A stretch of DNA of 60,275 nucleotides, filler included, from Sphacelaria rigidula (Eukaryota), in NCBI GenBank assembly GCA_964200075.2. It is 7 parts of 7 records of this genome, joined end to end, with 100 filler letters (N's around TTAATTAATTAA, not from the genome) between each part and the next. Parts side by side here need not be neighbours in the genome. Positions count along the whole stretch, not along the records: positions 25,880 to 34,403 come from CAXNAA020010885.1; 6 more parts are not named here. One strand, 5' to 3'. Positions 8,528 through 43,378 of this stretch are shown in pieces (within the stretch, counting starts at the first letter, position 1; each line of letters begins with the position of its first letter). The notes under the pieces were generated by a model. It was not told the origin of the DNA. It saw only the letters and a program-made list of their open reading frames with translations, and did no database searches. The translations under genes were made by a program, and so were the position numbers.

Positions 8528-8627
8528 NNNNNNNNNNNNNNNNNNNNNNNNNNNNNNNNNNNNNNNNNNNNTTAATTAATTAANNNNNNNNNNNNNNNNN
8601 NNNNNNNNNNNNNNNNNNNNNNNNNNN
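8528..8627. other. Artificial contig-joining linker N44-TTAATTAATTAA-N44
   Basis: Identical 100-bp spacers also at 17155-17254, 25780-25879, 34404-34503, 43028-43127 and 51652-51751. The 12-mer has stop codons in all six frames. Confidence 0.98.
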
Positions 8628-19837: not shown

Positions 19838-22800
19838 GTAATCGGTGTTGGAGGCGGGGGCAGCAACGCCGTCAAGCGGATGATGGAGTCGGAGATCGAG
19901 GGCGTGGATTTCTGGTCTCTCAACACCGATGTGCAGGCGCTTGGTAAGGTCTACGGAGCCCGCACCATGACCATCGGGAACACTATCACGCGCGGGCTGG
20001 GCGCAGGGGGAGTTCCCGACATTGGAAGGCGTGCTGCTGATGAGAGCCGCCAGCAGATCGCGGATATTGTGGTGGGGACGGATCTTGTCTTTGTCACGGC
20101 TGGCATGGGCGGCGGGACAGGTAAATCCCCGAGAGGGCGTTTTGAATGATCGGCTAACTCGGACACGACCGACCCCGCAACCGGGTGAAGGGGAAAGACA
20201 GGATCGATGGCGCACCGGTTGTGTGAAAGAACAAATATGACAAAACCGGCCCGCCGACCAGGTCGATGTCAAACAAAACCGACCCGGCAAGCAGATCGAA
20301 AAAAGCAGAGCCCTGGCGGTGGTGACGTGTTTTTCGCCACGCACGCTCTTTTCTTCATGGATATTGTATTTCTTGGTAAGCCTCTCCCTCCCCCCGAACA
20401 TGACCGTTGTCTTACTTGTCTTTCGGGGATCAACCCATCTCTTCTCCGACAACACACATGCGCATGTTCACCCTTTGACCGCCGGAGGTGGATCATTTGT
20501 GGAACTGGGATCACTTCTACTTGAAAATGATGCCGATTCCATAAACGGACCACCTGCGGCGGTCAAGGGGTTTAAAATGCAGATAGCTTGGAAGTGATGT
20601 AGGTTTCGTCCTCAATAGTGTTCAGGAATTGAACAAGTTCGTCAAAATGGTCGAATCCCCGCATATCTCGAGTTTAGACCCGAACATGAAAGTGTGGAAG
20701 AGCCATGGACCTTTGCTATTTTCGATGTCGCACGTAGACGTGGGTTTTGGTATCAGATGTTGCAGTACCCACGGAAGAGGACCATGACAGGTAAATGGTG
20801 AACTTTTGGGATATGACTGTTCCGTGTACAAATATACGTGAAACCGCTGCATCTGGTCGAAGTCGTCGTTTCCCACTGAATCAGTACGAGTAACCCGAAG
20901 TCTGGCTGCGACAGCGGTCTTGCGTTCATCGTTGCTCACCATCCAGCAGATCGGTGTATCGTAGGTGTGCTCGTAGATCTCGAACAAGGTTTCCTTGACG
21001 CTTTTTCCCGCTTGCTTGTATTGTCTCAGCGGCAGTTTTTACGGAAGATAAGAAGGGTTGAAGGGTTGGTTTTGTGCTTGTTACGCGGGCGTCTATTTCT
21101 CCTGTTACTGCTGGAACATAATACAAACATTGCGGAGTGCAGTAGTTTCTCTTGGTATAATATATATAGCGTGTACTATAACAGCGCCAACCCTCTCCGA
21201 GCTGATCGCTGCAAATTACAGCTATTAAACGTTGGCATGCGGCAGAGTGCCATGTATCGTCGCGGTACCAAACACTGGCTTCGTTGGAAAGTGTCGTTCT
21301 AGATATCTCTTTGAATGGATTTTTTTGTGAGACAACGCCGCCGTCCTCCCTAAAATGGATGATGACCAAACAGGGACCTGTGCGCGGGGTGCTTTTCATC
21401 GTACGTTGAGGTGGTGATCAAATTGCATTTGCGCGCATTGAGTGGACGCCAAACAACGTTTGGCAGCAACACTTGTGTCGGGTAGTCCGGCATGTTTTCG
21501 ATACTAATCGTTTATCGCAAAATTTCGACAATTTTCATCGTAAGGAATTGAAGAATGAAGATGGCAAGCACATATGGGTTGATATCCCGGTGTATAATGG
21601 CGATATGAAATCAAAGAGACGGAAAAATCAAAGTTTGATATATTACTCATCACGCTTTTTTTATTTCGTCTCTGAGATATTTTGCTTTCAGTGGGTACGA
21701 TTTTCTACTTTTTTCTTCGGTTGTACTCACTCCAAAATCTGGTAGGATTCGCCATCTACTCGGTCGTACTGATGTTGGCAAAGATAGAACCGCCTCTGTC
21801 CGCAGCTACGCGGTGGCTGTTGCGATAGTTGACGATCTACGGTACAATACACTACAGTATAGAAGGTGCTCACAACTCTTGCCGGGCACGTTGTGTTTGA
21901 TCGGATGCGATGAGCTTTGTTCACTGACTTGCGTTCACATGTGTGTTGTGTTGTGCTGTGCTGTGTTGTATGTGGTTGCAAGCGGAACAAGTGTGGAGGA
22001 GGGTGATCATGATAGCTTCAAAACAGGAAAACGACCGTTTTTTGCTGTAGCTCTCATACTTTTTCTGTTTTTTTACTCTAGTGGCTTATTTGCATGTGGG
22101 GATTCTTTGCCATCTTTGCTGGACAAGATATCACCCACCCCCGTGGCCCTTCAGTGTGCTTCAGCCACTGTCATGTGCAGAGGCACGCCGTAGGATAAAG
22201 GCAGTATAGTTGATCACTTGGGAGGGTGAGAAATTTCTCCGATAGTTCGACTTGATTTTAGTGCGGACAGTGAAATCCGGATCTTTAATGGGGCTATGCT
22301 CCAAGCGTGCTTCTAGCTTGCGCAGAACGCGTTTTTGTCGAAATCGGCGCCGATTTGAGGTCCGGCAACGCACCCTTCACCAAGGTAACACTTTCCACCC
22401 CCTCACCCGAGGGTTCTCGGTGTGCCTTCGTTGGGGTTAGGGTTAGTGCTAGTGTTATAGCTTGTTCGAAGTTATTAATTTCTGAGAAATTTCTCACCCT
22501 CCCAAGTGATGAACTAACCTTGATGAAGGTGGCGTTGGGGCGCGCGCGATAATCGAAGTTTGTCATGCTCCATGAAGAAATGCAACATCCCTACCCGCGG
22601 CCAGCCAAAACGCCAACTTTTCTCGTCCTTGTTTTTGTTTCGTCACGTGTACAAAGTGCAACAGCAGTAGGTGCATGAGGTATCATCACGGACCATTCAG
22701 CATAGCGCTTAAAAATTGCCATCTAGATGTGCCACACGGCCCCCTTCCAGCAGTACACACCGAGCATCGTGTCCAACGGAAAGCCTGTGTTCAACCGTCT

Positions 22801-25697
22801 GCGCCATCTTTATCCTAACATGTCTATTATCTACACGTTGTAGAGCAAGTTGATTCAATATTCTCGCCCAATGGTTGAATAACGCCAGTGCAACATATGT
22901 TGTTCAACACACGCGGCGGTTTTTACCGTTCAAACAGGGTCTGGCGCCGCTCCAGTGGTGGCCGAGGTAGCGAAAGAAGCCGGAGCTTTGACGGTCGGAG
23001 TGGTGACTAAGCCTTTCAGCTTCGAGGGGCGCAGACGAATGGCACAGGCTAACCAGGTGAAACGCCATTCCGGATCCTTGTCGCTCGTGTGTGGCAAATA
23101 CTCGATCACATTAAATAGCAATTTCGTACTTCTGGCTCGCTCCTTGGCGTAGACCAACCAGACGGATGACCCTTCCGGTTGCCCTTGATACCGCCCTGGT
23201 GCACGGTCACTTGAGTCAGAAGGTTGAAGCTTCGAATCCTGATGAAGGCAGTCTTCCCCCGACACAAGCTGGAACAATGTGCACTATATCCCATACATGC
23301 CATACGATCGTGGAATTTGTGATATTTTTTATTGCTCCTTGGCCCAGACCAGCGAGGTCGATGGTGCTCCCCAGGCTGTTGGTGCTGCCACGTCCTGGTA
23401 GTATTGCTGGTACACCTTGCCGCCGCGCTTTGGTGATGTGATAGTTCGACTGTCGCCATTAGGGCGGAGAGAATGAGGGTTCGATTCCCGATGTAGTGTA
23501 TCTTCTTCGTAATATGTGGTTCCCACTGTGAAAAGCGTGAGAACGTGAGTAAACGAAGTAGTCGTCTGAGTTCGTTTGACGTGAGTTGACGCCTGATCTA
23601 ATCCGCGTGACCGAAATGCAAGGCGTGTACTGGGGAAAGATGGGTTGATCCGTTGAGACCACGGACTCGTCCCGAGGAGGAGGGGGGATCAAAGTGCGAC
23701 AAATGAAGAAAATGAAATGATGATAATTGTAAAAAATAACCAATGGCTGCTTAGGATAGAGGGTTGCAGCTTAGGATGCCATGAGACGCAATCTGAGATC
23801 AAGTATACTGTCGAGCACGTTACATACTTGTCGCGGGTTGTGGCGGCCATTGACATTTTGTTTTCTCTAAGGAGTCTAGGCAGCAAACCACAGTATGCGT
23901 GACATCGCAATAGCAAAGATTTCTGGAGAGAATGAATTGTATTGAAACCGTAGGCGAATAGAACGAAAATATATCCCTTTTTTTCACTCAATGGGAGTCA
24001 ATTCCCTTGAGTGTGCGAGGATGTTCTTCAACTATTACTCTAGCTAGTGACAAGCTCAATGCGGATAGATGAAGCGCTGGTTATTTTGTTGTTGTTGTTT
24101 CGTCTGCACTCCAGGCGATTGCGGCGCTTGAGCAAGCAGTGGACACGCTGATCGTCGTCAACAACGACCAACTGCTCAAGATCATCCCCTCAGACACACC
24201 AGTAGAGCACGCCTTCAAGGTGGCGGATGACGTTCTCCGGCAGGTAACATCACTTTTTGTGCCTTTCACCTCCCTCGTCAGCGTCATGTCACCTCTAGCC
24301 CGTCAATAAAATTATCTCATGACTCGTGCTCTGTGGCTGATAGCTCCGTCGGCACGAAAGGTTTGTTCAACGTTTGCCATTGCCCTCGAAAAATTCACTG
24401 TGACCATAGTATTGATGGCATAATGGTAGAGGGAATGCGTGTGCTACTGCAAACGTTCAACGTGTCTGAGAAATGAAGATTCCGAAGAAGGTTTCACAGC
24501 CTGCAAAAGGCTGATGGAAGGTCGTGCGAAAAATAGCACACCGCTTTCACGAGTTAGTCGAAAACCGACGGTTGGAACATCCTTTTTCTAGTACTGACGC
24601 TACGATCCGGATCTTTAGTGTCGCTGACGTTTTAGGGTCCTGTCATCGTGCGCAGGGCGCATTTTTCAGAGATTAGCACCGCCTCAGGTGCCGATCTGTA
24701 GTGCTGGGGTACTAGCGCAGCCAGCCCACTTTACTGGATCCTGCCAGTACCTTGTGTCCGCGACGCAATAATAGGATTTTCCGTTGAACAGTGAGGCGTT
24801 GTAGTGCAATGTACGTGAAGGAAAGTGCTGGCAGTACTGGCTGCTTTTTTTCTCTGGTACCAATACACCGACAATACCAGTACCAGTAGTATTGCCAGTG
24901 TGTGCTGGTCCATTACCCAGCCCTACCGATCTGGGCTTCGCCGACGCATGCTTTGCCTAGGACGCCCTCTCTACGCTCTTTGCCGGAGAGTCCTCAGCAT
25001 GCCTAGAGTTGAGGTGTTCGACGAATCCAGTGTGTAAAGCATGCGTGTTGAACGAGATCCTCGGGCGAACCGGACTCGAAAAAGCACATGTTTTGACCTA
25101 CTCCTTTCGCCGAAGCCTGGTTCCTGGGAGCGGTTGTTAGTTGACATGAAGATGCGATTGGGTGTCACACCGGTTTCGTGGGTGGTGGCGTTCAATTTCG
25201 AAAATACAAATGCATGTACTGTAGACGGGTGGAGACGACACCCCCGATAACACGGGCACATTGCCGTTACGTGTCTGTACACGTCTGGACGCCCCTTCCA
25301 CATTGGCGACATTGGGTGGATTCGAAATGACCCGCGCGAGTCACGGGGGATTGGGTGGACACCCCGTTTTCAGTACTGATACCTACCGAGAGTCTCGCGG
25401 GGGCGCGTGTGTGTGATACGAAGAGACCCTTTCAAAGTGAGAAGAACGGTAACGAGGGTAGCCGCCGCTTGCTTTGCATATAAAGGTGTAAATTTTACGC
25501 ATACAGGCACGAGCGTTGCCTTTTGTTGACGGTCTCATCCTCTCGTCGATGCCATCCTTTCGCCCTTGATGGCCATGATTTCGGCGTGACCGTGGATGAT
25601 GGACAAAATACGGTGGGCGTTGTGGTTAGGGTGTCGTGGGGATCTCGGACATCATCGTCAAGCCTGGACTCATCAATGTCGACTTCGCCGATGTCAG
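19838..25697 (+). CDS. ftsZ: FtsZ tubulin-like GTPase, nuclear-encoded and probably plastid-division type, partial
   Basis: Exons with consistent phases: ~19838-20120 ([43 protein letters not shown]), 22938-23056 ([22 protein letters not shown]), 24115-24243 ([21 protein letters not shown]) and 25630-25697 ([22 protein letters not shown]). N-terminal targeting exons and the C-terminus are not in this contig. Confidence 0.97.
22213..22510. mobile_element. MITE with a perfect 27-bp terminal inverted repeat, in an ftsZ intron
   Basis: ATCACTTGGGAGGGTGAGAAATTTCTC (22213-22239) pairs with GAGAAATTTCTCACCCTCCCAAGTGAT (22484-22510). There is a possible 3-bp TGA target duplication. Confidence 0.85.
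23425..23720 (+). mobile_element. tRNA-derived SINE-like repeat in an ftsZ intron
   Basis: Pol III B-box GGTTCGATTCC at 23478-23488. The body is shared with the minus-strand copy at ~5000-5450, and it ends in an AAATGA-type simple-repeat tail. Confidence 0.55.
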
Positions 25698-25879
25698 GTG
25701 TGCGCAAATGATATACTTCCTCTGGGGCGAAATATAAGCTCGTTTGGAAAAGCGCAAAATATAAGCTCGATTTACTAACNNNNNNNNNNNNNNNNNNNNN
25801 NNNNNNNNNNNNNNNNNNNNNNNTTAATTAATTAANNNNNNNNNNNNNNNNNNNNNNNNNNNNNNNNNNNNNNNNNNNN

Positions 25880-28800
25880 AGTTCGCAAGTTGGGTTGCCC
25901 ACTTGAGCCTCAATTCAGAGTTAAACCTCAATTCTCACAATTTGCTGTTAACGGCAGAAAGTCTCCATCTCGTACGAGACATCTTGTGATCCCTGCCATG
26001 ATTTGGCCGTCTCTCTCTGACACACCGAATTGTTGAGGGGTATTGGTGGCGGCGTACTCGATCTTGATTCCAGAGTCCTTGCATTAGGTGCGGAACTCCT
26101 TCCCGGGATTCTCTCCTTCTTTGTCGCATCGGATAATTTCAATGCGGTAGCCCCCGGCAGCCGCCACTTGCATGTTGTAGGCGTGAAGGGCTTCCATTGT
26201 CTCGGTCTTGTGGCGGAGCAGGAATACCTCCTTCATTCTTGAGTAACCATCGGTGATCTTGCACACAAAGAAGAATGTGCCTCCTTTCGACCTCGCAGGT
26301 GGCTGGATCGGCCCCATGTTGTCGATGTATACCATCTGTCCTGGTCGAGACAGCTCGCGAGTGGTCTTCTTCGGATGAGAAGTTTGCTTGTGCTTGGCGA
26401 TCTCGCATATGTCGTAGGGTGATGGTTTGTCCTGGTATTCGACGCCGGTGCCTTTTTGCCGGCGCAAGATGTCCATGCTGCGCTGATTGAAGTGTCCAAG
26501 TCTCCGGTGCCAAATGTCTGCGCTTACCGCGAGAGAATACGCCGCACTGGGTTTGTTGACCGGCGTTCTGGTCTCGGGTCTTCCAAAGGCGCTCGGTCCG
26601 GCCTCCTTCCTCGGTGGCTTGGAGGGGGGGCATGACTACCACGCGTAGCTCCGTGTGTAGCCGGTTGACCATGACCATGCGACAATGGAGTCGAGGGTTC
26701 GATTCTCCGTCGGTGGCTTGGAGACGGATGTCGCAGGTGTGATGTTTTCCTCGAAGCCGACGTCCGGTATGCACATCCCTTGGTCTCGCGGATCCTGTGT
26801 GAGAGGTACGACTACGCCATGCATTGTGAGGTGTGGAGTGTCCTCTTCGACGACGAATCTAAGCCCCTTCTTCAGAAGCGATGTGGGCGAGAGGATGTTG
26901 GGTCCCAGACCTGGAACGATGAGGCCCTGTATTCGCACTGGCAGTTGATGCCCATTGTCGTCCTTGATTGTGCAGTGTAAGATCTCTGTCGCCGTTCCTT
27001 TCAGTTGATCCTGACCCGCTACTTCGATAATCTTCGGCGTGGAACGCTCCTTGTAATTGTGGATGTGTCTCCTCGAGATGAGTCTGTCATCGAACATGGT
27101 CTCTGATGCGCCCGAGTCTACCAGAAATGGCGTTCTTGTGGCGCTCGCTATGAAGTTCCATCCTCTATTCGGAGAGCATGTAGCGAACATGAAGCCGCCG
27201 TCGAAGTCGTCCTCTTCGCGGGTGAAGTCAATAGCTGCCTTCTCGTTGCTCGTTTCTTTGCTTGTCGAAAATGATGCGCAGTGAGCGCAGTGCGAGCATG
27301 CCGAGAATGCCTTGCTTGCTTCCTTCGTCTCTTCGGGTCGCTTTGCTCCTTACTTGCAGCATTCTTCGTCCGAGTGAGTCGTGGTGTTGTGGATGGCGCA
27401 CCACTTTGTCGCTCCAGCGGGCTTCGTTTTCTTCTTCCCTTTGGGCTTGAACCTGGGACAGTTCCCCCTGATTTGCCCGGTTTCGATGCAGTCGTGACAG
27501 ACCACTTCAGACACCGCAGTAGTCATTGCAAATCCTCGACCGGTAATTCGACCGTTCGAGCCTTTGCGTGATTGCGCGTCCATAAAAATGTTGCGCAATG
27601 TCAATTGCATTTGTAGCATGTCGCACGTGGGGTCGCGAAACACCACCATCTTGACGGCGTTGTACTCGTCGGAGAAGCCTTGCACGCAGATGTCCTTGAA
27701 TCGACGATCGGAGATAGTTTCCTCCATTTTCTCGATCTGTGGGCGAAGAAGATGTTTCTGGTTGAAGTAGTCGTCCGGGTTCTCACCAATGTTCATAGGG
27801 GAGTTCTCCAGCTCCGACATCTTTGCTCGAATCACCTCATCGGTCACTCTGTCGTAGTTGCTGCAGAGCTCGTTGAAGGCTGCCTGTCAGTCGCCGCTGA
27901 TCCCGCTGTCATCTTCATGTTTGTGTACCGACAAGGCGGCCGGTAGTTCGACGAGTAGAAACAGGATGGCGTAGAGATCTTCGTTCGACCTTGTGTATGT
28001 CTCAACAGCTTCGGTGTCACTTGGATCTAGCTTCCTTTCGTCCTTGAGGAGTGGCAAAATGTCCCTCCGTGTTACTCCCAAGACAACGCACAGCTTCTTC
28101 ATCCAGTTCTTGAATTCAGCCGGATCCTTTCCGTCGAACTTCTCGAGCCCTCTGATAACGTTGCTCAGGTTGGTGGAGCTATCGGCTCCGACAGCTATGC
28201 CGCCTCCGGAATTTCTTGAAGCCTCAGTCATTGTTCGCTTCCAGCAAAGACTTCGCGATCCTCGTCTCCTGTTTTGCTGTGTAGATCTAACTCTTGCTGC
28301 AGGAGTGTGATTGCTCGCGGTAAAGTATGTACCCGAGGCTTCCCGACCCCGCTCCTGCTAGTGATATAGAGGACTCCGGTTGTAGGTCGTCTTCCCGATC
28401 CCGCTCCCGCTAACGATGTAGAGGACTCCGGTTGTTGATCGTCTTTTCCCGACCCCGCTCCTGCTAACGATGTAGAGGACTTCGGTTGTTGATCGTCTTT
28501 TCCACTGCTGTGTAGATACACCAGTAGTCGTGTTTCCTTCTGCCGCAGAAGAACTTGCTCGAAGTGTAAGAAACTCGAGGCCTTCCCACGCGACGCAAAC
28601 TTGCTGATGGCTCACCGCAGCTGCACCCAGTACTGCCGCAGTAGTGATGTGTGTATACCAAAGGTGAATTCTCAGCACCCTGGTGTAGATGACCAAATTT
28701 GCGCGCTTACTTTTGTTGCCGTTGACCGCTGACGGCGCCGCAATCTCCGAAGATCTTCGAGACCAAAGTTTTTTCGTGTCCACGGACCAATCTTGATATG

Positions 28801-29168
28801 CAGCGAGAAGGCTTGTCTTCACCTCCCCGTGATGTCCGCAGCTCGTGATGTACGCGGTTAAGCGAGGCTCATAACCTGAGAGTGTAAAGCGTCCTGCAGC
28901 TGCAGCGGTGCCTTGCTGCGTGTGCTTTGTAGACTGAGTAGCCTACCGCGGAGGATTACGCTCGGGCCACGGTTTGATCCGTCAGAGAATTTGACTGAAG
29001 GAATATTGATGTTTATTATTGACTGACTCCCGAAGTCAAGTTTTCGCTGATGGTGATAAAAGAAGAGAAGTAGTAGAGGAGTGGGCGAGCACCAAGTGTG
29101 GGAGCCTATCGATCAGCTAATGAACGTCCAGAACTTCCACACGTCTAGAATACTCGCGGGATATTACA
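25880..29168 (-). mobile_element. Ty1/Copia LTR retrotransposon (5' LTR, PBS, gag, protease, integrase), decayed and cut by the contig start
   Basis: Read on the minus strand: LTR ~29168 to 28877, ending CA and followed by PBS GGTTATGAGCC (28876-28866). Gag 28231-27350 (LEKFDGKD..FKNW, zinc-knuckle remnants). Protease FLVDSGAS at ~27120. WHRRLGH and integrase (VYIDNMGP, ITDGYSR, IRCDKEGE) at 26520-25900. Several frameshifts. Confidence 0.92.
28340..28505. repeat. Three imperfect ~55-bp tandem repeats in the Copia 5' leader
   Basis: Unit CCCGACCCCGCTCCTGCTAACGATGTAGAGGACTCCGGTTGTTGATCGTCTTTT repeated with variants. Confidence 0.85.
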
Positions 29169-30102
29169 ACCGATAACGATGCTTCGGGGATTCGACCCTC
29201 GTAGTCTAAGATCAAAGCAATCGCTCAGTTGAGGGAACCATAGAAGGTAGAGGAGCTAAGATCGTTTCTGGGTATGCCTGGATATCTTAGGCGGTACATA
29301 AAGGTATACAGTAACATGGCGGCGCCACTCACAGGCTTGCTGAGAGACAAGCGATCGCCACCAAGCGGGCGAGGGGGGTGGCAATTCCGTAGGGGCCTCA
29401 GCAGCGACAAGCATTCGTGAACTTGAAGGATGCGCTGATGACGTATCCGATCTTGGTATACCCGGATTGGAATGAGCGATTCGTTCTACACTCCGACGCC
29501 TCGCAGTACGCGGCGGGGGCCGCCCTGGCCCAGGAAGCAGATGAGCGGGAATGGATCATTGAGTATGCTAGTCATAGATGGTCTCGAACGGACGAAGAGA
29601 GGTCGGCGTCAGAGAGAGAGAAGTCGTGGCTGTTTTGTGGTCAGTAGAGCGGTTTAGATCGTATCTATGGGGGCGGGAGTCCACGCTTGTCACGGATTGT
29701 AATGCGTTGACGTGGCTATTTCGCAGTCAACACTTGTCACCTAAGTTCCACCGGTGGGTGCTGAGGTTGATAGAGTATGATATGGTTCTCAAGTGGAGAG
29801 CTGGGCACGAACACCAGCTGCCGGACGCCTTGTCCCGGCTGCAAGGAAACCAACCCCGGGGAACCGCCATTGACGCGTCATTCCCTGACGACAAGACAGA
29901 AGCCGGACCCGGCAGAGAGGGAGGACCGCAAGGACCTAAACTGGACGGGATGCTGCTGAAGGAACTGGAGACCGAGTACCCGGAAGAGACCGCAGACGTC
30001 ATGGCGTTAGCGTTGGAAAAAGTCAGCGCACTGTATACTCCGCAAACCGAAGACGAATCCACCAATGACGCCGAGCGCCCCATGCCAGGACCGATGAAGT
30101 GA

Positions 30103-31010
30103 CGACCCCTCGCTTTGGTTGTCCATTGCGGAGGCGGAGGGAGTATTCTGGCCGCTGAAGAGTTCTTGGAGGTGGTGGCAGCCACCGATGCAGACTGGAA
30201 AGCGTTGGACTGCGTTAGAGTAGACGAAGTTGGAAAGGAAGTCAAGCTGGTACGTACAAGTTCAGGGCGCCGCTCCTTCCACAATTTGGTGGAAGAGGTG
30301 CAACCAGAAGTAATGGTAGGAGATACGAGTAGAGTTACTTCCACTGAGCGAGGTGCGGCGGAGCCGGAATACGCCGACGCTATCAAAGAGTTGGTCGAGT
30401 CTTTCCTTTCCTCAGTCTCGGTGACAACTCTGATCTTGGGGAGTACCGCTGTAATGCTGAGCTCTTCGGGTTGGAAGGAGCACGTCGCTCCGTTGTTGAA
30501 CGGAGCTGGTAGCTTCACCGAGCAAGCTTCAGTCCCCGCCGTGCAGGTGGGAGCCCCGTATCGAAAGAAACGGACCTATGTGATCGCTTTGAAGGCTGGT
30601 CATCAGGGACAGGGGCCGTTGCGAGCGTGGAAGCAGCGAGTGGAAGCGCACACCGTGGCTTGCCCCACGTTGGGTTAGCTGTATGGGCGGACCGGCACCT
30701 ACTTCCTGGAGCCGACGGGACAGGGCAAGGCTATTCACGATTTCAAGGATCCGATGCCCAGGTTATCGCGTTCCCGGCTGACGAAGAGTAAAGTCAGGCG
30801 TGAGGAATTCAAATCCCACAAGGCGGACGCGGGGGGATGGGAGAAAGCCGTCGAGCTGGAGAGAGACGATTTCGTAAGAGTCGCGACTAACCTCGACCGC
30901 TACGAGACACCACCCACGGTGAACAACGACGCCATGCTGGAGATCGGGGCTAATTTCTTCCACCCGTGGATGATGAAGGCGGTTTTATCAAGCCTGGAAG
31001 CGGAAGGTTT
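30103..31010 (+). pseudogene. DNA cytosine-5 methyltransferase-like domain embedded in frame in the Gypsy pol
   Basis: Same frame as RNase H, with stops at 30100 and 30676. Motif I/II-like LVVHCGGGGSILAA..VVAATDADWKA, motif VIII-like AVQVGAPYRKKRTYVIA and motif IX/X-like ELERDDFVRV..MLEIGANFFHPWMMKAV occur in canonical order. The PC and ENV catalytic motifs are not recognisable. Confidence 0.75.
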
Positions 31011-32569
31011 GTTGAGCCTGACTCAGATTTGCAGCGAGGATGTAGATTTGAGCGCGATCGCAGCGACGTGGCCTGGTGAGGAAGCAGAGTCATCAGAAAC
31101 TTGGGGAGCCGCTGTAACGCGCTCGTCGGTCCCCGAGGCGGAGACTAAGTCAGACCAAGATCCTGGTGGGGGGGGGAGGCTTCAACTGAGGAGCCACTGG
31201 TACCAGGCAAGGGCAACCCTAGGATCGTTCTCGAGCAGACGAGAGCGATCTTGATGGATGGACCGCGACTCGTCCTACTACAAGAGCGGGATTCCCGGCT
31301 TGGACCCATCAAGGAGAGGTTAAAAGAGGAACATATAGATGAACGGACCAATAAGGAGCAGGATGCGTACGTTCTAGATGAGGATAATCTTCTATGGTAT
31401 ACCTCACCTAGGGCGCCGGCTAAGCTAGCTATTCCCCGCAGTCTAGTGCCAGGCTTGGTGGCATTGGTGCACACTACGCACGGGCACGCCGGAGTAATGA
31501 GGACAACAGCAGTGATCAACGCACGTTACGAATGGCCAGGTCTTTTCACCGATACTCGCAGATACGTGCTGTCTTGTGGGTGTCGCCGTCGCAAGCGCAC
31601 TAACAGTCACACAATAGCGACGCGACCTGCCCGATTCTTGCGGGCATGGGAGGTGCTAGAAATGGACATATCAGACATGAAGAAGGTTTCCATTTCGGGT
31701 TATAGGTACTTGTTGGTTGTTGTGGATCGAGCGACCAAGTTTCTCTTTGCCTTTCCGCTGGCTGCCAAGACCACTGAACCCGTAGCCAAATGTCTGTCGA
31801 ACCTCTTCTTGACGTTCGGAGTCCCTATTTCCTTAGAAGTGACCCCGGGGGGGAGTTCACTTCAGAGGTGGTAGGCCATGTGTGCCAGTGGATGAAGGTG
31901 AAGCTGGATCATGGTCCAGCAGAGCACCCTCGCGGTCAGGGCGCAGTGGAAAGGTACGGTGAACGGTTGCACGACGTTTTCGCCGAGGTATGTAAGCAGT
32001 GGCCGGACAGGTGGGATGAGCACGTGGATCCCCCTGTATGGATTCACCGTACCACTCCCGAACCAACATTGCCTGATAACCCGACACCATTCAAGCTGCT
32101 TTTTGGGCGCGAGCCGCGCACCCAAATCGATGCTGTGTCACCGGAAGCGGGGTCTCCACCTTTGAGTAACACGATGGAACAACAGCGACATAATCTAAAG
32201 GAGGTTCACGAGCTATTAACCTAGCGCCATAAGCGAAGGGAGGAGGTAAGACCAGCTATAAATGCCGAGATGACTCGCCAGTCGGCAGGATCGCGAGCTC
32301 AGGTAGGGGATTTGATGTTGGCCAAGGAGTCGGACAACTCCCCTCTAAACAAAGGTGTGCCGGCCAAACTGGTACACGAGTTGTAGACTGAACCGTGGAC
32401 GGTGCGACAGGTGGTGATACCAGGTCTCAGCCTCAAGGTCAACATGCTAGGGCGTAAAGTACGAGAAGAGACGGTGTCCGCGGCCAACGTGAAGATATTT
32501 TATGTGCGCCCAGAACAGCTGCGGCATTCATTTCCAGACAAGTACTCTCAGTGAGCTTGAGGAGTCGAC

Positions 32570-33067
32570 TTGGGGTTGGCTGAGGACATTGCGTCCGTCC
32601 CACAACTGCATACGTTGACGGACAGGAAAGTGGTACTAGGCTCAGGGGCGTCGTGGGAATGGGAAAATCGGGGGTTATTTCACGATGGGGCCGAGTCGTA
32701 CTGGCTGTCAGAGGAGGAAGTTTTGGATAGTTTCACTGCGTTGCAGTTAGACGTGTTTCATGCGTTGTGGGAGCTATATCACCCACAGACCAAACCGCGC
32801 CCATCTGTCACACCATCTCGAGCAGAAAGAGACTCGATTGCTCGGGATGAAGCGTTGCGGCAGATTATCCGAGGGACCAAACTCTGTAAACACTTTTCAA
32901 ACCACCAAGGTGAGCGACAGGAATTCGAAGGGGTGGTTTTCGATTTCCGTCAACCATATTACCGCATCAAGTATGACGATGGAGATTGGGTAGAGATGAC
33001 ACAACTACAGGTGCGAAAATGCTCGGTTGATGGAGGAGATACCAGAACAGTGCCTGGGTCAAGATAA
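32570..33067 (+). pseudogene. C-terminal pol extension with a chromodomain-like segment and a Tudor-like domain
   Basis: In frame with integrase across stop codons. TLTDRKVV..WEWENRGLFHDGAESYWLSEEEVL is chromo-like. GTKLCKHF..FEGVVFDFRQPYYRIKYDDGDWVEMT fits the Tudor YxDGDxE signature. Confidence 0.65.
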
Positions 33068-33859
33068 ACGTAGAGGGAGACCTCTTCTGCACGGTGTTTA
33101 AATTCCCTACGTGGTCTAACCCGGCAGAGCGGTCAACAAAGCGGGAAACTCTTCCGGACGGGATGGAATCGTTTTGCACGATGTTTAAATTCCCTACGTG
33201 GTCTAACTCGGCAGAACGGTTACCAAGATCGACGGCTACACGAAACCAACGTCAAGTACTCGAGGACGAGGAACCTGGTAACGCGGCGATCCATCGTCGA
33301 ACCCCGCTCAGTCCCAGGGTTTGTCAACCCTAGGTCTGAGAGGGGGTGTTATGGATCGCGGTATGCATGGAGGAAGGGCAGTACAATGATGGGCCCGTTT
33401 TTTTGGTGGAAATGTCCCGGAGGACTGACTGCGAGATCTGGCAATGTGCCGCAGTCAGAGGTGAGGATGTTGGAGCCCGTTGCAGACGGTTACATAAACA
33501 TGCTTCGTTACATCCGACTTGAACTCGATTCTTCAGCATCGATGATGGTCGGCACCCTGGTTTTTCAATCGTTTTTGGAACGAGCTCAAAACCACCATTG
33601 AAAAAGAGGAACTGAATCGGTCCTGAAGCTGTGATCAAGATAACCTGACGTTCAACGTTGCTCTGTTCTGCGTTGGACTTTCCACTCGTGCGGTGCGTTT
33701 ACTGGTTGGTCAGCGGATACACGGTGAGTGAGTAAGGATAAAATCATTATGAGGGGTGGATCTAGATGATGTAAGTCGACACAATAATAGAATATGCGAA
33801 TGAGTGAACAAACAGTATGATGTGCAACCTGGAGACCTTATGCCCAGGGGGGGCGATTA

Positions 33860-34361
33860 TGTTGTGAAATGAGGAATGATGTCTGAGCGTGTATAGAAAA
33901 ACGAAGATTCGGTGCTGGTGTGACTGACTTCATTCAGGGAATCGTTGGTTGCACGGGAGAAACACGCAACGTTGACCACAATCCTGCACAACCCATTATG
34001 TTTGAAACATAGATGCGTGCATGTGATGCCCATCTAGTCAAGTCGACCTGCGTCGTGTCAAGTCAGTGCATCAAAACAGCATTATCCGCTGCATACGATT
34101 CAGGCTGACTTTAGAAGAAGACCAGAGACACGTCTGGGAAGCAGTCTCGGAGATGGCGTAGATGCTTCTTGTATTATCGGAGAACAGGCTTGTCGCTGCT
34201 GCGCTGCTTGAAATAGGCTCTTAAAAGACACCCAAAGCGTGAGGGCCAACAGTCGGATACCAAGCATAGCAGGGTATGACACACGAAGCCTAGTCAGCTG
34301 GATAATGACCAATAAACCCGGAACAGTTATACGGGTGGCCACTGGGGTGCCTGCAACCTCA
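33860..34361 (+). repeat. Putative 3' LTR of the Gypsy element
   Basis: Starts with TG immediately after the polypurine tract at 33846-33856. The right end is approximate (..GCAACCTCA), and no partner LTR is present in the window. Confidence 0.6.
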
Positions 34362-35496
34362 AATTTGGACGTTACAGACCTTGTGCAAGGTCTGTAACGT
34401 CCANNNNNNNNNNNNNNNNNNNNNNNNNNNNNNNNNNNNNNNNNNNNTTAATTAATTAANNNNNNNNNNNNNNNNNNNNNNNNNNNNNNNNNNNNNNNNN
34501 NNNCAGCTTTGTAGGGGTGCGAGGTCACTGGTCTGATGCGTATGGCATCATGACCAGGAGTCCCCCCCCCCCCCCCCCCCCCTCCTTTCTTTAAAAAAAA
34601 TAACCCTTCAAAGACAGGGAAAAAAGCCCAGAAAACCAGAGAAAAACAGGTTGTTTGGCCATTTCCCGAGTATAGATGAAAATATCGATACAGACGTTTC
34701 TTCGTCGAGTGAGCAAAAAAACGTATCGAACTTTGAACTTTTTGTTCCGTTCGATTTCCAACGCTGCTGCTAAATGGTACATGATGGTTCGGTCATCAAG
34801 CGGCGAAGCCACGAGCCAAAAAGCCCCCCCCCACAAGGCAGAGGGGACCCCGCCGGAGGCGCCGCCGGAGGGGCCCACTGGAGGAGCTGTGCGGGAGGCA
34901 TGTTTATACACGATTTGGCTTCAGTAGAGCAAAAAAATACGTGTGTGTGCTGTATGTACCATACGCAGCCGGGAACGACCTATCTATAGAGCCGGTGACG
35001 GTAAATATTGGTTTGAGAACATTATCCAAAATTTTGATGCAACAATCACCATTATAACCATTATGATGATACTGACCAGTTATAACTGGCACCGTTTCCG
35101 AGCTCCATCTATTGCAATTATTGTTGTAATGGTCCTATAATTTATTCAGCACATTTTTTGTCTAATAATGCATCTGTTGACCATATAATATTTTGTCCAA
35201 GGTGCGGATTGATTTAATGCACCTGGCGTTGCATAACACCTGGCTGGTTTACAAGTTTTTTACGTTCACCGCGGGGGAAAACCCTATATTCCCGAGAATT
35301 AGCACAGAAAAGTAACTCTATAAAAACTTTGAAGAAAAACGTTTTGGTAGAAGAGCCTGAAGTGTAGCTTCTGTACCTTCCGAGAAATAACGAGTTGGGA
35401 AAAACTTGTCACCCCCTCAGGGGGTGTTATTCCCCATCACCTACGGTACTACCGCATCGAGCATCCAGCAACAATTGAACACCTGTTGACTACAAG

Positions 35497-38400
35497 ATGA
35501 GAGCGAGGGAAGTTCTCGATGCTTTGGACAGGGTGGCACTGTTTCGCACACAGGCAAGGCGCGGACGCATTGAGGAGATTGGAGAGGACCTTGATAGCGC
35601 GCTGTCTTTGCTTAACCTTCAAAGTCAGTCGCCGCGGCAGCAGCAGGCAACCTGTAAAACGGCTGGTACGATAACGGGTGGTGAGATATTGTACCGCATT
35701 TTTCGTCGGTGTGTCAACACCGTGTGTAACGCGCTGATTTCTAAGCGTGTGCGCAGCTAACATGGACAAGGTAGAGTAGGGCACATTCCAGTAGCCCTCC
35801 AGCCCACTTTACTACCTTTACTTCGGTATGTCCATCTTCGCAAGCACCTCGACGTAGTTCAGTCCAGTCTATTCCAGTACGTCGTGGAAAATCTCACTTA
35901 TCAACCGGCACCAACACCGCACGTATCCTTGTGCTGTTCTGTTGTGGCAGGCCAGACCGAATCTCGGTAGGAGGTGTCTGCACGAATTATGATCAAAATG
36001 TTCATTATCTTCCAGCTCTTCTTTGCCATATGTGTGTTCGCTACGTTCTCTGTGCTTTCGAGGTTCCCCCCATGTGTCCTCAGATCCAAAAGCCACGTCA
36101 CGAGCAGGTGCACAGTACATGTCTCGAAACTGTTTCATCCTGATGTGCACGATGATGGTGATGGGTTGCACAACCTGCGGCACTGGACTACACTGCTGCA
36201 ATGCTATGGTGTAGCGTACTGTTGCACTGAACTACAGTTGCTGCTGGTCACACATGGAGGATGGACTACTGTACTGTACGGGACTGCACCATACTGTGCG
36301 GTGCTGTTCCACGCTGTACTGCACTTTGCTGTGTTGTACTGCTCTGTAACGTACAGTAGTTTTTCTCGACCACCCCTAGAGGCGAGGCGGGACCTGCATG
36401 TATTACCACATGAGCGATGGATCTTATCAACCTTTTGTCTTGCTAGATTTGGCTCATTTCGAGAGGCAAATACGTTGTCGATGGCACTGCTATACTATCA
36501 CACTAGGTGTCCAGATTATCAAGGTCAGCTGTTGCAGATAGCCATGTGTTACAGCGGTAGAACGAAAGAGCCAATTTTCGTGTCCCACTCCTCCCGGCGG
36601 CGGCACCACGCCTGACACGTACATATCCTACAGGTACTGTGAGCGTTGCGCAAAACGTCGATCGCGTGGTCCTAGACTGGTCTACCGGAGTAATTGTCAA
36701 GCTTTCGGGTGGTCTTTTGGGACAGCTGTCATCCACCGCAAGAACAAACAGCACATCCGATAGTGGACTGGCAGACCGCCCTCCTCTCCTCGCCACCAAA
36801 GGAGGAAACAGAAACAGCAGCAAGGCAAGCTCTCGGCCGGCAGCAGCAGACCCAACCGGCAACAGCAATCGAGCATCGAATCATGACGGTCTTGGCGGCG
36901 GGGATGTTAGTGACAGCAACAAAGTCGCTGATCACGAGCAACAGAAACTCGACCAGCGCAAGCTTCACAATCAGAACGCGCAGCGATGGCTGTCGGATGC
37001 GCGGACGTGGCAAGCATTTGTGCTGTCGCTGACCGGGTGCGCCGCGACCGATCCCGCCGGCACCCAGCTGCCTCAGAGCGCCGGTGTGGCCATCCTTCGA
37101 GCAGCAGTTTTCACCGTACGACAAGGCCGACATAACAGCAGCAGCCGTGGTGGTGGTGATGATGATGATGGTGATAATCGTAGTGATAAAGTCTTGAGTT
37201 GGGAAAGCAACGACGGTGGGGAGGACCACCGGAGAATCAACGATGGCCAAGAAAAAGTTGCCACAATCGATGGTCATACCTCCCAGTTATCAGTGGCAGC
37301 TAAGAAAGAAATGTCGTCGAGCGAGTGGGCATTCCTGGCGATTTGCGCACTCTGTTCTGGCGTCGCGGCGGTAGCATCAGCACGCCGGCATTTGGAGAAA
37401 CGTGGGTGGACTTCCGTGCAGAAGCCCCACGACAGTAGTAACAGTGTCCTCGTGAACACTGCATTACTTCGGAGAAAGCGAGCGACGCCACCGCCGCCAT
37501 TGACCGTTGCTACCACAGCGACCGGGAGCGGTGCGCCTGCGGTGTCGGCAAGGCTTGGTTTCGTGGAGAGACTTCTTGATGGGCGAGATAGCGGTGGTGG
37601 CGGCGAGGAACATGGAGGTCGGGAAGGTCGGGCACTGTTGAGGTCGTCGCTTGACGCTTTCGCCACCTTCTTGGAGGACGTGATCCGCGAGCATGGGCTA
37701 TTTGGTGGTGGTGGTGGTGGCGACCGGAACCTTGATGATACATCTAGGGGCTTGGTAAATGATGCGCTCACTCATCTACTACGCTTTCAAGTCCGGTTGC
37801 AAGGGAACCAGCCCAACAGGCGCAAGGTACAAGTACATGATCAGCGGGGGCGTGTGTGTGCGCCGCCGTAAAGTCTGGTTCGAAAGGTGCAACGTTCGTG
37901 CGAGGTATTTTGTCAGACGGGTGTAGTGTGCTGCAGCTGTTGTACCGCACAGGAACTCTGGTTGTTCTGTAGCTCAACGAAAGAAACGAAGTTGAAAGTG
38001 ACGTTCGTGGTTGTGGAAATATACATGGAGTAGGCCGGCGCTGCCCGGGTCCTTTGGCGACTCTGCATCATCAAGTGGTACCTGAAGGTTTGAACCAGCG
38101 TTTCAGTGTATCAGAATGCCTCACCAAAATTGGATCGCTTTCTCGACATGCCTAGTCGGGTTCTGTGTCGGTACTTTCCAGCCGTGTCGAGACATCTAAT
38201 GAAAGAGCAACGCCCGACTGAGTACTCTTACATAATCTTTGACCACCCTTGATTCCAGGTGTTCTCCTCGTGCTGTTCGAAGCTGATGGGCCCTTTGTTC
38301 GACACTTTGCGTGATGCCGAAACGGGACCGTCGGTCAGCCCTTCACTCGCGTCCGCTGCAGTGGCCCTCATTTGGGACGCGCTTTTCCACGAAGAGCACC

Positions 38401-41400
38401 TAGAGGGATACCGAGAGGCGTTCACCGCTGCGGAAGCTGCAGCCGCCGCCGCCTCTTCCTCCACCGCTGCTGCCGCCACCGCATCGGTTGAACCTGCTAC
38501 TTTGCCGGCAACCGGATCGACCGAAACCGGCTCAAAAAAGCGCAGACGCAAACGCAACAGGAGCGGTGATGGTGCAAATGAAACCAGTAATCTCAGTGCT
38601 AGTATTGGTGAGAGTGGCAGTGGTGCTGCACGTAGCGGTGCTGCGCCTCAACGCGCGTGCTACCAACAGCAGCTCCTAGACGAGATGGCCAAGCTCGTAG
38701 GAAGGGGAGGGATGGAAATGTCGGAGCACGCCGCGAAGATGATAACGCCGGGGCGTCTTGGTGCGATGATGGGCGCGCCTATTCTACTGGAGGGCTTTAT
38801 CGTGCGCCTGACGGACCAGATGCAGAATGGTAAAAGTGCGGATATTCACCAGGCCGCGAGCAGTGGTGTGGCAGCTGCGGCGTCTGGTGGAGGGCGCGGT
38901 GGCTCCGCTATTGGTGGGAAACGACCCCGGTCTTCAGCTGGGGTTTCAATTCATGCAGCGGGTGGCGGCGGTGGCGGCGGTGGCGGTGGAGGCTCTAACC
39001 TTTCACGGGCGTCTCTGATGTTCAAGATGTGGACTTCTCTGACACGAGCTCTATCTCCGCTGTGCTTCGATGGGAGTAAGGACGATATGCTGTCGGGGCG
39101 CGAGGGAATCACGTCGAGCCTTGTCCCGTTCTTACGGTCGACTAACGCTATGCTGCACTCTCTCGTGGCGCACGACGTGTACCGCGTCAACGAAGACTGG
39201 GGCGGCCGGGAGTTTAAGCAACTGGAGGCGTTTGCTGCTACACTTTTTTCTCTCGCCGACAGCGTCCACCCGGCGGCCCTTGCCGCAGCCCCTGCCGCCG
39301 TAGCTTCGGAGGCAAGTAACAGTCCTCGTGATGATGCTGTTGTTGCCGAAGCGCCACGGCAATTCTTGAAGGCATTTCATGCGCTGCTGAGGATGAACCA
39401 TAACATCCTCCATGACAAGCTGCGTAAGTTGTTTCGCATGGCCTTCGAGTGGAGCGCCGCCGCCGTACCAGCCGTGGGTCGGGCGGCCGCCGCCGCAGGC
39501 GTCGCAGCCGCCAACGATGCTGCTGACCATGGAAGTGCTGCGCAAAGGCCGGAGGAACCTTTGCGGCCGTTGGCCGTCGCCCTCGTAGTCAGTCTGGTAG
39601 ACACGTACGGCCGATTGCGGCAGATGGATCACCTGGTCCATGCCCTGTTCGGGGCCATCAGTGACAGTCCGATGGCGACGGCCGGTATGCTGAGGGGCGA
39701 AGAGTGCACGTCGGCGCTCGGACGGTGAGTGCATACGATGACTATAATAGTTTCACGTGTTGTTGCATACGGGTATCCGTGTAATGGTGTGGCAGTGAGC
39801 TTGTGAGCAGCATCGCTCGTGAGATCATCTCCTGCTCGTTCTTCGTGAGTTGCGTAGCGAGTTGAGAGGGAGTCAGTGGCCCATTTTTTCCCCTTCCACG
39901 CTGGGCTACCGATGGCAACATTTCCTCCTGTCTATTGCCCCACGAGCGGTCGACTTCGAGGAAGGAAACACACAAGAGGCGTCAATCGCTCTCATATGCT
40001 TCGTGTGGTTTTCCTTATCTGGCTAAGCTCATGTCTCGATTTCATTCACTACCCAATCCACTCTCCGCACACACACTTGAGAGACTATTTTCATTCAGGA
40101 CCCTCTCCTCAGCTTTTCCCGTCCTCTGCCCTCGTCACCCGCCCGCGCTGTTCCACCTCTCCAACGCAGCGCATTCCAACGACTACCGGAGGGACAGATC
40201 GAATCCATGTGGCATGTCTTCGCCGTTCATCTGCGCGCGGGATGGGTGTCTGCCGCGACGACCTCGGTAAACGCGAAGGAAGTGGTTGTGGACAAAGGTG
40301 TGGGGGCCCAGGAAGAGGTCGATGTGAGCGACACCGGCGGCAGTCGAGAGACAAGGTTGTTGGCGAGGGAGTTGGACGGCGAAATTTTTGTTCTGTTCTT
40401 GCGGAACTTGCACGTGACGAGCAGCGTCGCAGGCGGCGTCGGGGAGTTGTGCTCAAGACTAGCGGAGGAGGTGCGGAAACTGACCTCTTTCTTGTTTTGG
40501 AGGGTCCACGCGGATGAAACATGCATGTAGCCATATATGCACGACCGAAGTGCAACACTACTGTCATCGAAGTCGCTACATGCACATCTTTGGTTCGACG
40601 TAGGGCTCCAAGACTTGATACCGGGAAGAATCGGACAACCCCCCCCTGCCACCCTCTCAAGTTCACGTTATTTAACCGGGACGCTCGTGTGGTTCCGCTC
40701 CCCCACCATACTCTTGCCCGTCCACAGAGTCTTAAGAGCTTTTCTGCGGTGCTGCATCATTCGGAAGCTGCGTGTGTAGTCCACGCCCCGCAGTCACCCT
40801 CGTGTGCTGGCGAGAAGAAGAAGAAGAAGAGGAAAAAAGAAAAGGCAGGGGAAGAGCGGGTGGAGTCATCGGGGTCTCGAGAAGGAGGGGGAAGTGACGT
40901 TGGTCTTACCATTGAGGCTATGCTGGCGTTGAGGCCAGCACTCGACATCCACGGCTGGCTGCTGGATCTCGATACACGGTAAATAAAGAAAGATCGACAG
41001 TGACGGGGCGGGAAACAGAGAGGGACAGATGGACAGATAGAGAAGGGATCAGGATGTATTGGCACGAGAGAAAATTCGAGACATTGGGAAGGCAAGAGCA
41101 GAGATTATGAGATGCGGGTGTCCTCTGTGTGTTTCAATTGTTATGTTATTGCGACCGCTACCACCATTCATCGGTCCAACGGCATTGCACAATTGTACGT
41201 ACACGTTTTGTCCTGTATATCTTCATGTTGTTCGCGGTCGTGGACACAAGACAACCTTTACTCAAGGTGATGACGAACTCTTGAATTGAAAAATTCCGAA
41301 GTTTTCCCCTCGTAACGCCCACCTTTTACCCCGTTGCAAATCTCCGTCGCCCCCACTGTGCTCCCACCTTCAAACACCTATTTATCCCTCGACGCCTTTC

Positions 41401-42662: not shown

Positions 42663-43378
42663 GTGCGTGAGAACATGCCGCACGTGTCGTTTTTGCGTGA
42701 TACTCGTTCGCCTCCTTGTTTTATTTCTCATGTTTTTTCGTTGAAAACAAACTGCCTCTACTTTTTTTCGTTCTCGATATATATTTTTTTCTTTTTTCCC
42801 CCGAAACTGGGAAGAAAAAGAGAAGAAAAAGAGAAGAAAAAAGAGACAACGTATATTGTGGAGACATGCAGACATGAAACAAAAACAAGAGATACAAGAT
42901 ACGACGCCAACGGGGTATATCGGGGCTTTCCCCCCCCCCCCCCCCCCCGGGCGGGGGGGGGGGGAGGGGGGCCAAGCTGGGGGCCCCCCCCTGGGTTTTT
43001 TTTTTTTTTTTTTTACGATACTGAAAANNNNNNNNNNNNNNNNNNNNNNNNNNNNNNNNNNNNNNNNNNNNTTAATTAATTAANNNNNNNNNNNNNNNNN
43101 NNNNNNNNNNNNNNNNNNNNNNNNNNNTTTGTAGGGATGCGAGGTCAATGGTCTGATGACTATGGCAGGCATGATCATGAGTACACCCCCCCCATACACA
43201 CACAGGCATGGCTGCAGCAGTCACCGTGCAGTCGTCAGTGTAGACAGTCGGTTATTACATTTTATTTTTCTCAATATAACCGGCGTTCTCGACACCAAGC
43301 TTTTATGCATTAGTGACTTATCAGCATTTATGTATGTTTCCCCTTTCCTTCGCGCGCTTGTGTACTGCTGCGCCTCAG

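Follow-up and report, generated by a model that had tools for sequence, protein, structure and literature searches.

A probable C5-cytosine methyltransferase fold within the Pol polyprotein of a Gypsy retrotransposon from Sphacelaria rigidula

Methyltransferase-bearing retrotransposons and the Sphacelaria element

Retrotransposons that carry a DNA methyltransferase (DNMT) have been reported from several lineages, including SymbioLINE-Dnmt and SymbioDIRS-Dnmt3 of Symbiodinium and KnitGypsy-Dnmt3 of Klebsormidium nitens (de Mendoza et al., 2018; PMC5890265), as well as the EpiLTRs of Cymbomonas tetramitiformis and Euglena gracilis, which combine a DNMT with a chromodomain (bioRxiv 10.64898/2026.05.21.726589). 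DNMT-bearing Gypsy elements are already known as a kind, and in the groups with methyltransferase-bearing retrotransposons (dinoflagellates, streptophytes, Cymbomonas, and Euglena) the domains are easily recognised and the hosts methylate their DNA. Here we analysed a Gypsy element in a 60,275-nt stretch of DNA, filler included, from Sphacelaria rigidula (GCA_964200075.2; hereafter the window, along which all positions are counted). The element lies in the piece at 25880-34403, which comes from CAXNAA020010885.1. Between the RNase H and integrase of its Pol, positions 30103-31026 very probably encode the decayed remains of a two-lobed C5-cytosine methyltransferase (C5-MTase) fold, fixed at this place in Pol and present here in a dead copy; this judgement extends to the identity of the domain, its placement, and the state of the copy, and to nothing beyond them. 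The same idea is thereby met in brown algae, a group reported to have lost DNMT1 early and to have nil or very low 5-methylcytosine (5mC), in the form of a domain whose divergence would hide it from DNMT surveys based on Pfam or BLAST.

Like the brown-algal element, KnitGypsy-Dnmt3 is described as a Gypsy element with long terminal repeats (LTRs), present in many copies, that holds a C5-MTase in its Pol open reading frame (ORF). However, it encodes a clear Dnmt3 with key catalytic residues kept and a Ka/Ks below 0.2, in a host with plant-like methylation (PMC5890265), whereas the brown-algal domain falls far under Pfam detection, is missing several near-invariant residues, has a target-recognition lobe like that of bacterial, Dnmt2, and DNMT1 enzymes, and resides in a host lineage with reported DNMT1 loss and nil or very low 5mC. 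SymbioLINE-Dnmt and SymbioDIRS-Dnmt3 are likewise retrotransposon-borne C5-MTases, there proposed to methylate their own cDNA, but they belong to the LINE and DIRS classes, have conserved catalytic residues, and were shown experimentally to carry out de novo CG methylation, according to the same report (PMC5890265). The EpiLTRs share with the element studied here an LTR retrotransposon Pol that joins a DNMT to a chromatin reader, the reader in our case being a weak Tudor-like match. As the preprint describes them, their DNMT is DNMT4-related and sits at the 3' end of pol in Cymbomonas, accompanied by a Dam-like adenine methyltransferase and a chromodomain (bioRxiv 10.64898/2026.05.21.726589); in contrast, the brown-algal element has one C5-type fold, placed between RNase H and integrase, together with a Tudor-like reader. 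No stramenopile example is named in that text (bioRxiv 10.64898/2026.05.21.726589).

A Tudor-bearing Gypsy element, Gypsy-10_Ec32, has been described in Ectocarpus, with a homologue in Tribonema (Genome Biol 2025; PMC12477816). It too is a brown-algal Gypsy element; its Tudor domain is C-terminal, and at the equivalent place both the Sphacelaria element and a homologue of its Pol, P0014, have a weak Tudor-like match. It differs in that the text and Figure 1 legend of that report list EN, RT, INT, RH, ZnK, AP, and DDE, and no cytosine methyltransferase for this element (PMC12477816). Compared by description, the Sphacelaria element and P0014 probably belong to the Gypsy-10_Ec32 lineage; if the lineages are identical, the present findings add a domain to the published description, whether that domain is active or not. 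Literature searches over the full text of main articles brought up no retrotransposon of brown algae or other stramenopiles with a C5-MTase-like domain, in line with an original prediction, made from the sequence of the window, of a lineage not known to its author to be described.

Evidence for a C5-methyltransferase fold in Pol

Four lines of evidence bear on the identity of the domain, namely its predicted fold, profile-profile comparison, protein-language-model neighbours, and sub-threshold Pfam matches, and the first three agree on the C5-MTase that had originally been read from the translation. AlphaFold2, given the Sphacelaria protein (P0002) and an 86-row family alignment, predicted a model with a mean predicted local distance difference test score (pLDDT) of 72.7 and a predicted template modelling score of 0.71, pLDDT falling below 50 past residue 309. 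The alignment contained no canonical DNMT; three of its 86 rows touch the Pfam DNMT family PF00145 at E <= 0.1, and every row stays below the cut-off. When the model was compared with the PDB by Foldseek, all 45 matches listed (ranks 1-49, with gaps) were C5-MTases, including Dnmt2, M.HaeIII, M.HhaI, MET1, DNMT1, and DIM-2, the best of those listed being Dnmt2 of S. pombe (6fdf_C; E 2.2e-10, 344 columns). VIA-align gave the same picture: all 50 entries shown were C5-MTases, with Z 18.9-22.2 and ~260-280 residues aligned over model residues 1-308, that is, both lobes, and those at the top were a Dcm-like enzyme (3lx6; Z 22.2, root-mean-square deviation 3.3, 274 residues aligned) and M.HaeIII (1dct; Z 21.9). 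Structure prediction followed by Foldseek had been suggested as a check on the identification, and it came out in favour.

Profile-profile comparison by hhalign of 87 family domain rows with an alignment of E. coli Dcm and seven phage DNMTs gave a probability score of 87 and P 4.1e-6 over 173 columns, with motifs I to VIII in register, while the reversed DNMT alignment gave P 0.39 and ten column shuffles gave P 0.42-1. Against Dcm alone the register was right and the match weak (P 0.032). In the ESM Atlas, the neighbours of P0014 residues 425-790 were in PF00145 clusters in 30 of 30 cases and those of the translation of 30103-30675 in 28 of 30 (score 0.94); the two queries share 24% identity, yet both return PF00145 neighbours. 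Direct matches to PF00145, for which the gathering cut-off is 22 bits, were obtained below that value for P0024 (19.4 bits), P0076 (17.6), P0025 (14.5), and P0036 (11.9), all within profile zone 104-189, and for two further cluster members (17.2 and 13.7 bits). The TL dipeptide is a conserved feature of C5-MTases, and the segments collinear with true DNMTs comprised motifs I, II, III, IV, VI, and VIII, a TL-containing target-recognition segment, and IX/X-like segments. Every motif string quoted in the original prediction was found in the translation, and in a profile-guided merge with true DNMTs each fell in the column of the motif it had been named for, in keeping with the canonical order proposed. 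Stand-alone C5-MTases (Dcm-like 3lx6, M.HaeIII 1dct, M.HhaI, and Dnmt2 6fdf) thus share with the domain a two-lobed fold of ~270 residues (Z 21-22) and the order of motifs; they differ from it in that identity is 9-14%, that AC stands for PC, LEC for ENV, and P[STYW]x[KR]xR for PQxRxR, and that the brown-algal domain is embedded in a polyprotein.

Several results weigh against this identification. A Pfam scan, the other check that had been suggested, failed: neither half of the domain in the Sphacelaria copy matched PF00145 or any other family at E <= 1, no relative reached the 22-bit cut-off (the best being P0024), and 13 of the 17 relatives scanned had no PF00145 match at all. phmmer with P0002 against PDB sequences gave no match at E <= 10, and the family profile (294 positions kept) found no DNMT among PDB sequences, its one match being irrelevant (E 1.9). 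By hhalign, the C-terminal half of the domain was not significant when taken alone (P 0.83). A first AlphaFold2 run with six close sequences gave a pLDDT of 38.7 and was unusable; therefore, the fold call rests on one model, the alignment for which is shallow in the motif IV-VI zone (6-14 rows).

The domain was also sought across related proteins. An exhaustive HMMER search returned 84 proteins at E <= 1e-3, of which P0054, a bacterial HYR/CHU_C surface protein, was dropped, leaving 83 homologues. Since the profile kept 244 positions and lost most of the motif IV-VIII zone, true DNMTs were out of its reach. Word-seeded searches gave five fragments (53-77% identity). Nearly all homologues are short ORFs on short contigs; no longer one was present among 7998 candidates, and neither a metagenome scan with P0020 nor a viral scan with P0025 confirmed related DNA loci. 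RNase H stands directly upstream of the domain within a single ORF in P0014, P0070, P0051, and P0076, and in P0092 a single ORF runs from the C-terminus of the domain through the linker into the zinc finger and core of the integrase. In the Sphacelaria element the upstream junction is likewise continuous, a single P0076 high-scoring segment pair (HSP) from tblastn running over 29647-30621 (37.8% identity, E 1e-63).

A cluster look-up of 30 proteins identified P0014 and P0070 as gene models of the brown alga Cladosiphon okamuranus, the sole named relatives, as expected from the proposal of a DNMT-bearing Gypsy lineage of brown algae. The Sphacelaria element is collinear with P0014 from the tail of the reverse transcriptase (RT) at 29208 to the C-terminus at 33013, with 44% identity in RNase H, 29.6% over 311 residues in the domain, and 36.8% in the integrase and C-terminal part. 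As the domain is still alignable to P0014, it is not an unconstrained spacer. In each of four sequencing runs from two studies, some labelled 'algae metagenome', 304 to 910 contigs matched a 3.9-kb stretch covering the domain, RT, and integrase at no less than 80% likeness. Together with the single-ORF joins, these hundreds of contigs indicate an abundant family in which Pol constantly includes the domain; the nested one-off fragment that had been named as a refuting outcome is not what was found. This Ty3/Gypsy lineage belongs to brown algae and has, in addition, a putative Tudor-like domain at the C-terminus.

In all four runs, contig depth over 29982-30497 was several-fold below that over the second half of the domain and the integrase, and single contigs skip 29824-30678 or 30659-31509. 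The low depth may reflect copies without part of the domain, or faster divergence in this part.

Catalytic residues and competing explanations

The Sphacelaria copy is dead: it is 5'-truncated, has in-frame stops and at least three frame changes, and carries Ser at the position of the catalytic Cys and Gly at that of the catalytic Glu. The Gypsy sequence begins at 29208, within RT, where it adjoins a Copia-like element on the opposite strand. Its frame changes lie near 29620, at 31173-31230, and at 31784-31870, and there are seven in-frame stops. Those at 30100 and 30676 are both private to this copy, most other copies in the contigs of the four runs having a sense codon there. Motif VI reads Gly-Ser-Thr instead of Glu-Asn-Val.

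Across the family, the pattern is GCGGGG, D-x-DW, ECxRxN, PE-h-h-h-G-[ND]-A-C-R-R, L-h-L-E-C, and VG-h-P-x-x-[KR]-x-R-x-F-V-V, at which the decayed Sphacelaria copy only hints. The Gly columns of motif I hold Gly in 23 to 27 of 28-29 members and the acidic position of motif II is Asp in 25 of 29 and Glu in three. Motif IV retains its Cys in 9/17 members and motif VI its Glu in 16/20, while in motif VIII the Pro is present in 16/17 and the two Arg positions are basic in 16/19 and 15/19. The family consensus therefore retains Cys, Glu, and Arg along with the S-adenosylmethionine (SAM)-binding motifs. The best-kept residues are those of the SAM-binding loop and the Asp of motif II, which speaks for activity, as does the retention of Cys, Glu, and the basic positions of motif VIII in a sample made up largely of decayed copies. 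In the Sphacelaria sub-lineage the nucleophile is replaced, and the domain there would therefore be at most a module for binding SAM or nucleic acid.

It is about as likely as not that in Cys-bearing lineages the domain methylates cytosine in the cDNA or RNA of the element. In working elements of this type, it would bind SAM and transfer the methyl group to cytosine, the likeliest substrate being the element's own new cDNA, or else its RNA or tRNA primer, while the Tudor-like domain would read histone marks for integration. The stronger proposal, that Cys-bearing lineages encode a working and extremely diverged C5-MTase which standard DNMT surveys have missed, we regard as unlikely. Were it true, most brown algae would have no other C5-MTase apart from DNMT2; jointly with the Tudor-like reader, the enzyme could mark fresh cDNA copies or chromatin close by, and the low-level, mostly non-CG 5mC that kelps are reported to have could stem from this hidden source.

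A number of observations speak against catalysis. Several residues that are near-invariant in active C5-MTases are gone from every member of this family, namely the Pro of PC (0/18), the Asn and Val of ENV (0/20 each), and the Gln of QxRxR (0/17); the Asn of motif X is present in only 9/48. The Cys is absent from both sequences of the Sphacelaria sub-lineage that span the site, P0002 and P0003 (the latter being the closest relative spanning the catalytic sites), and this sub-lineage is nonetheless highly repeated. CpG observed/expected is 0.98-1.08 in each of the seven pieces of the window and 0.95-1.05 in both retroelements; therefore, this sample of the genome bears no trace of methylation-driven CpG loss. 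Ectocarpus has been reported to be without cytosine methylation (PMC12477816), and brown algae other than Discosporangium are described as lacking DNMT1 and having nil or very low 5mC (PMC12477816; PMC6916402; bioRxiv 10.1101/2024.02.19.579948).

These same observations favour a descendant of a C5-MTase that methylates nothing in any lineage and serves Pol as a module for nucleic-acid or SAM binding or for spacing, for example in holding cDNA or choosing targets. Such a pseudoenzyme is possible, and it competes with the proposed mechanism only, not with the identity of the domain. Besides the universal losses, the CpG ratio near 1, and hosts reported to have no 5mC or very little, it would account for the loss of Cys in 8 of 17 members, the abundant Sphacelaria sub-lineage included, and for the failure of any member to exceed the Pfam cut-off. 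However, conservation is strongest exactly at the SAM-binding loop and the Asp of motif II, the consensus still shows Cys in motif IV, Glu in motif VI, and basic residues in motif VIII, and many of the sequences are decayed copies, in which single losses are expected. A Dnmt2-like methyltransferase of RNA, acting on the tRNA primer or the genomic RNA of the element and not on DNA, appears rather improbable. Dnmt2 chains do hold Foldseek ranks 1-8, and this activity would suit hosts without 5mC in DNA and leave CpG content untouched; yet by VIA-align Dnmt2 ties, within ~2 Z units, with bacterial DNA methyltransferases, DNMT1, and DIM-2, and the best viral match is a phage DNA methyltransferase.

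That the resemblance is one of chance, with DNMT motifs over-read in an ordinary Rossmann-like or unrelated linker domain, is very improbable: the Sphacelaria copy has no Pfam or PDB sequence match, as this explanation would predict, but Z reaches 22 over both lobes with only C5-MTases among the entries shown, the hhalign P value of 4e-6 compares with controls of at least 0.39, and two queries with only 24% mutual identity both lead to PF00145 neighbours. Hardly credible at all is a methyltransferase fragment, host or foreign, nested in one copy, or a chimeric assembly or gene model. The window does consist of seven 8.5-kb pieces joined end to end, and the copy is broken; against this, the whole element lies in one piece (25880-34403), independent ORFs of other origin link RNase H with the domain and the domain with integrase, one P0076 HSP spans the upstream junction, and hundreds of contigs from four runs cover the domain.

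As to origin, the VIA-align entries shown include bacterial, Dnmt2, DNMT1, DIM-2, DNMT5, and plant CMT structures, all at Z 18.9-22.2; of the viral models compared by structure, a phage enzyme matches best and giant-virus enzymes come next. Given the ties between bacterial, Dnmt2, DNMT1, and DIM-2 structures, these scores decide neither for nor against the bacterial or viral origin that had been proposed. No DNMT3 chain was among the matches listed by Foldseek and VIA-align, which does not exclude kinship with DNMT3. An active domain would reopen the question of what writes the residual 5mC of kelps and would offer a testable example of a transposon that brings its own epigenetic writer and reader; an inactive one would be a clear instance of a methyltransferase fold retained as a module of Pol with no catalytic role.

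Layout of the element and its surroundings

The features of the Gypsy element are given in Table 1. The frame of 29578 is open from stop to stop over 29578-30099, 30103-30675, and 30679-31251, ending at 31252, and its sole breaks up to 31251 are TGA at 30100-30102 and TAG at 30676-30678, as had been predicted for three ORFs sharing one frame. The starts then given for the second and third ORFs (30115 and 30754) denote the same two ORFs but are later in-frame positions, the stop-to-stop frames opening at 30103 and 30679. Likewise, the estimate of about 300 extra residues holds for the domain itself (~308 codons, 30103-31026), but not for the whole distance from RNase H to the zinc finger, since ~530 codons separate the end of DALSRL at 29841 from the start of the zinc finger at 31431, the remainder being linker.

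Table 1. Features of the Gypsy element in the window, with the basis of each assignment.
Feature	Position	Strand	Basis
C-terminal tail of Gypsy RT/connection; 5' cut of the element	29208..29351	+	tblastn with P0014 residues 253-300, 39.6% identity
RNase H, ending in DALSRL; frame change near 29617-29640, stop at 29390	29354..29841	+	Pfam RT_RNaseH; tblastn with P0014 residues 302-389 and P0051
Acidic linker from RNase H to the methyltransferase-fold domain; ends in TGA 30100-30102	29842..30102	+	Translation; P0076 tblastn
Probable C5-cytosine methyltransferase-fold domain, catalytic and target-recognition lobes; TAG 30676-30678	30103..31026	+	AlphaFold2 residues 1-308, Foldseek, VIA-align, hhalign, ESM Atlas
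Motif I, SAM-binding glycine loop, VVHCGGGGS	30118..30144	+	Aligned to DNMT FxGxGG
Motif II acidic residue, Asp29 of P0002	30187..30189	+	Family columns
Motif IV catalytic Cys position; Ser here (GDTSR)	30328..30330	+	Merged alignment: GNACR/GDTSR under GFPCQ
Motif VI Glu position (ENV); Gly here (LILGST)	30439..30441	+	hhalign and merged alignment: LEC under ENV
Motif VIII, PYRKKR, equivalent of PQxRxR	30556..30573	+	hhalign and merged alignment
Low-complexity linker to integrase; frameshift between ~31173 and 31230	31027..31430	+	P0004 in frame 1 to 31173; P0092 in frame 3 from 31230
Integrase H2C2 zinc finger	31431..31595	+	Pfam Integrase_H2C2, E 2.4e-10
Integrase catalytic core; frame change near 31784-31870	31650..32224	+	rve below cut-off; tblastn with P0014 residues 811-1143 and P0092
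Pol C-terminal extension; stops at 32222, 32384, 32552, and 32558; weak Tudor-like match	32225..33064	+	Pfam; tblastn with P0014 up to residue 1155

The Gypsy order RT, RNase H, integrase is present, with the RT tail upstream and H2C2 and rve downstream; in the relatives P0014 and P0070, RVT_1 stands upstream of RNase H. Pfam placed RT_RNaseH in 29578-30099 (E 1.6e-14), and within 31149-31871, which is read in a frame other than that of 29578, it found Integrase_H2C2 and also rve at E 1.1e-4, the latter below cut-off (22.9 against 32.6 bits). The Tudor-like match is to PTM_DIR17_Tudor at 32876-32998 and is weak (E 3.2e-4; 20.9 bits, below the cut-off of 27.2 bits), as is that at the equivalent place, the C-terminus, of P0014 (E 0.0085). 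The Tudor-like region gave nothing meaningful against PDB sequences. No flanking pair of direct repeats (LTR) was found in 24000-36000; the element lacks its 5' part, and the piece ends at 34403. Just 3' of the end of Pol lie two 55-base direct repeats (33085-33226, + strand), 89% identical and separated by 87 bases, which may belong to the 3' untranslated region or to an LTR.

The Copia-like fragment that adjoins the truncated 5' end of the Gypsy element occupies 26084-28942 on the - strand, comprises gag, a protease-like region, and gag_pre-integrase (E 1.4e-7), and is probably a nested insertion. Three tandem 54-base repeats lie within it at 28340-28499.

Identical linkers of 100 bases (44 N, TTAATTAATTAA, 44 N) occur at 8528-8627, 17155-17254, 25780-25879, 34404-34503, 43028-43127, and 51652-51751. 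Their spacing of 8624-8627 bases marks seven pieces of ~8524 bases joined by six-frame stop spacers, and neighbourhood across the linkers is therefore not to be assumed; the Gypsy fragment is wholly inside one piece. The most GC-rich piece (GC 0.55-0.59) has two long open frames without a Pfam match, at 36561-37868 (+, 436 codons) and 38253-39725 (+, 491 codons). Exons of host genes were found in other pieces, namely a DEAD-box helicase over two ORFs at 9515-11265 (+), a tubulin GTPase domain at 19790-20146 (+), and RCC1 repeats at 50464-50880 (+), and these identify the stretch as eukaryotic nuclear DNA.

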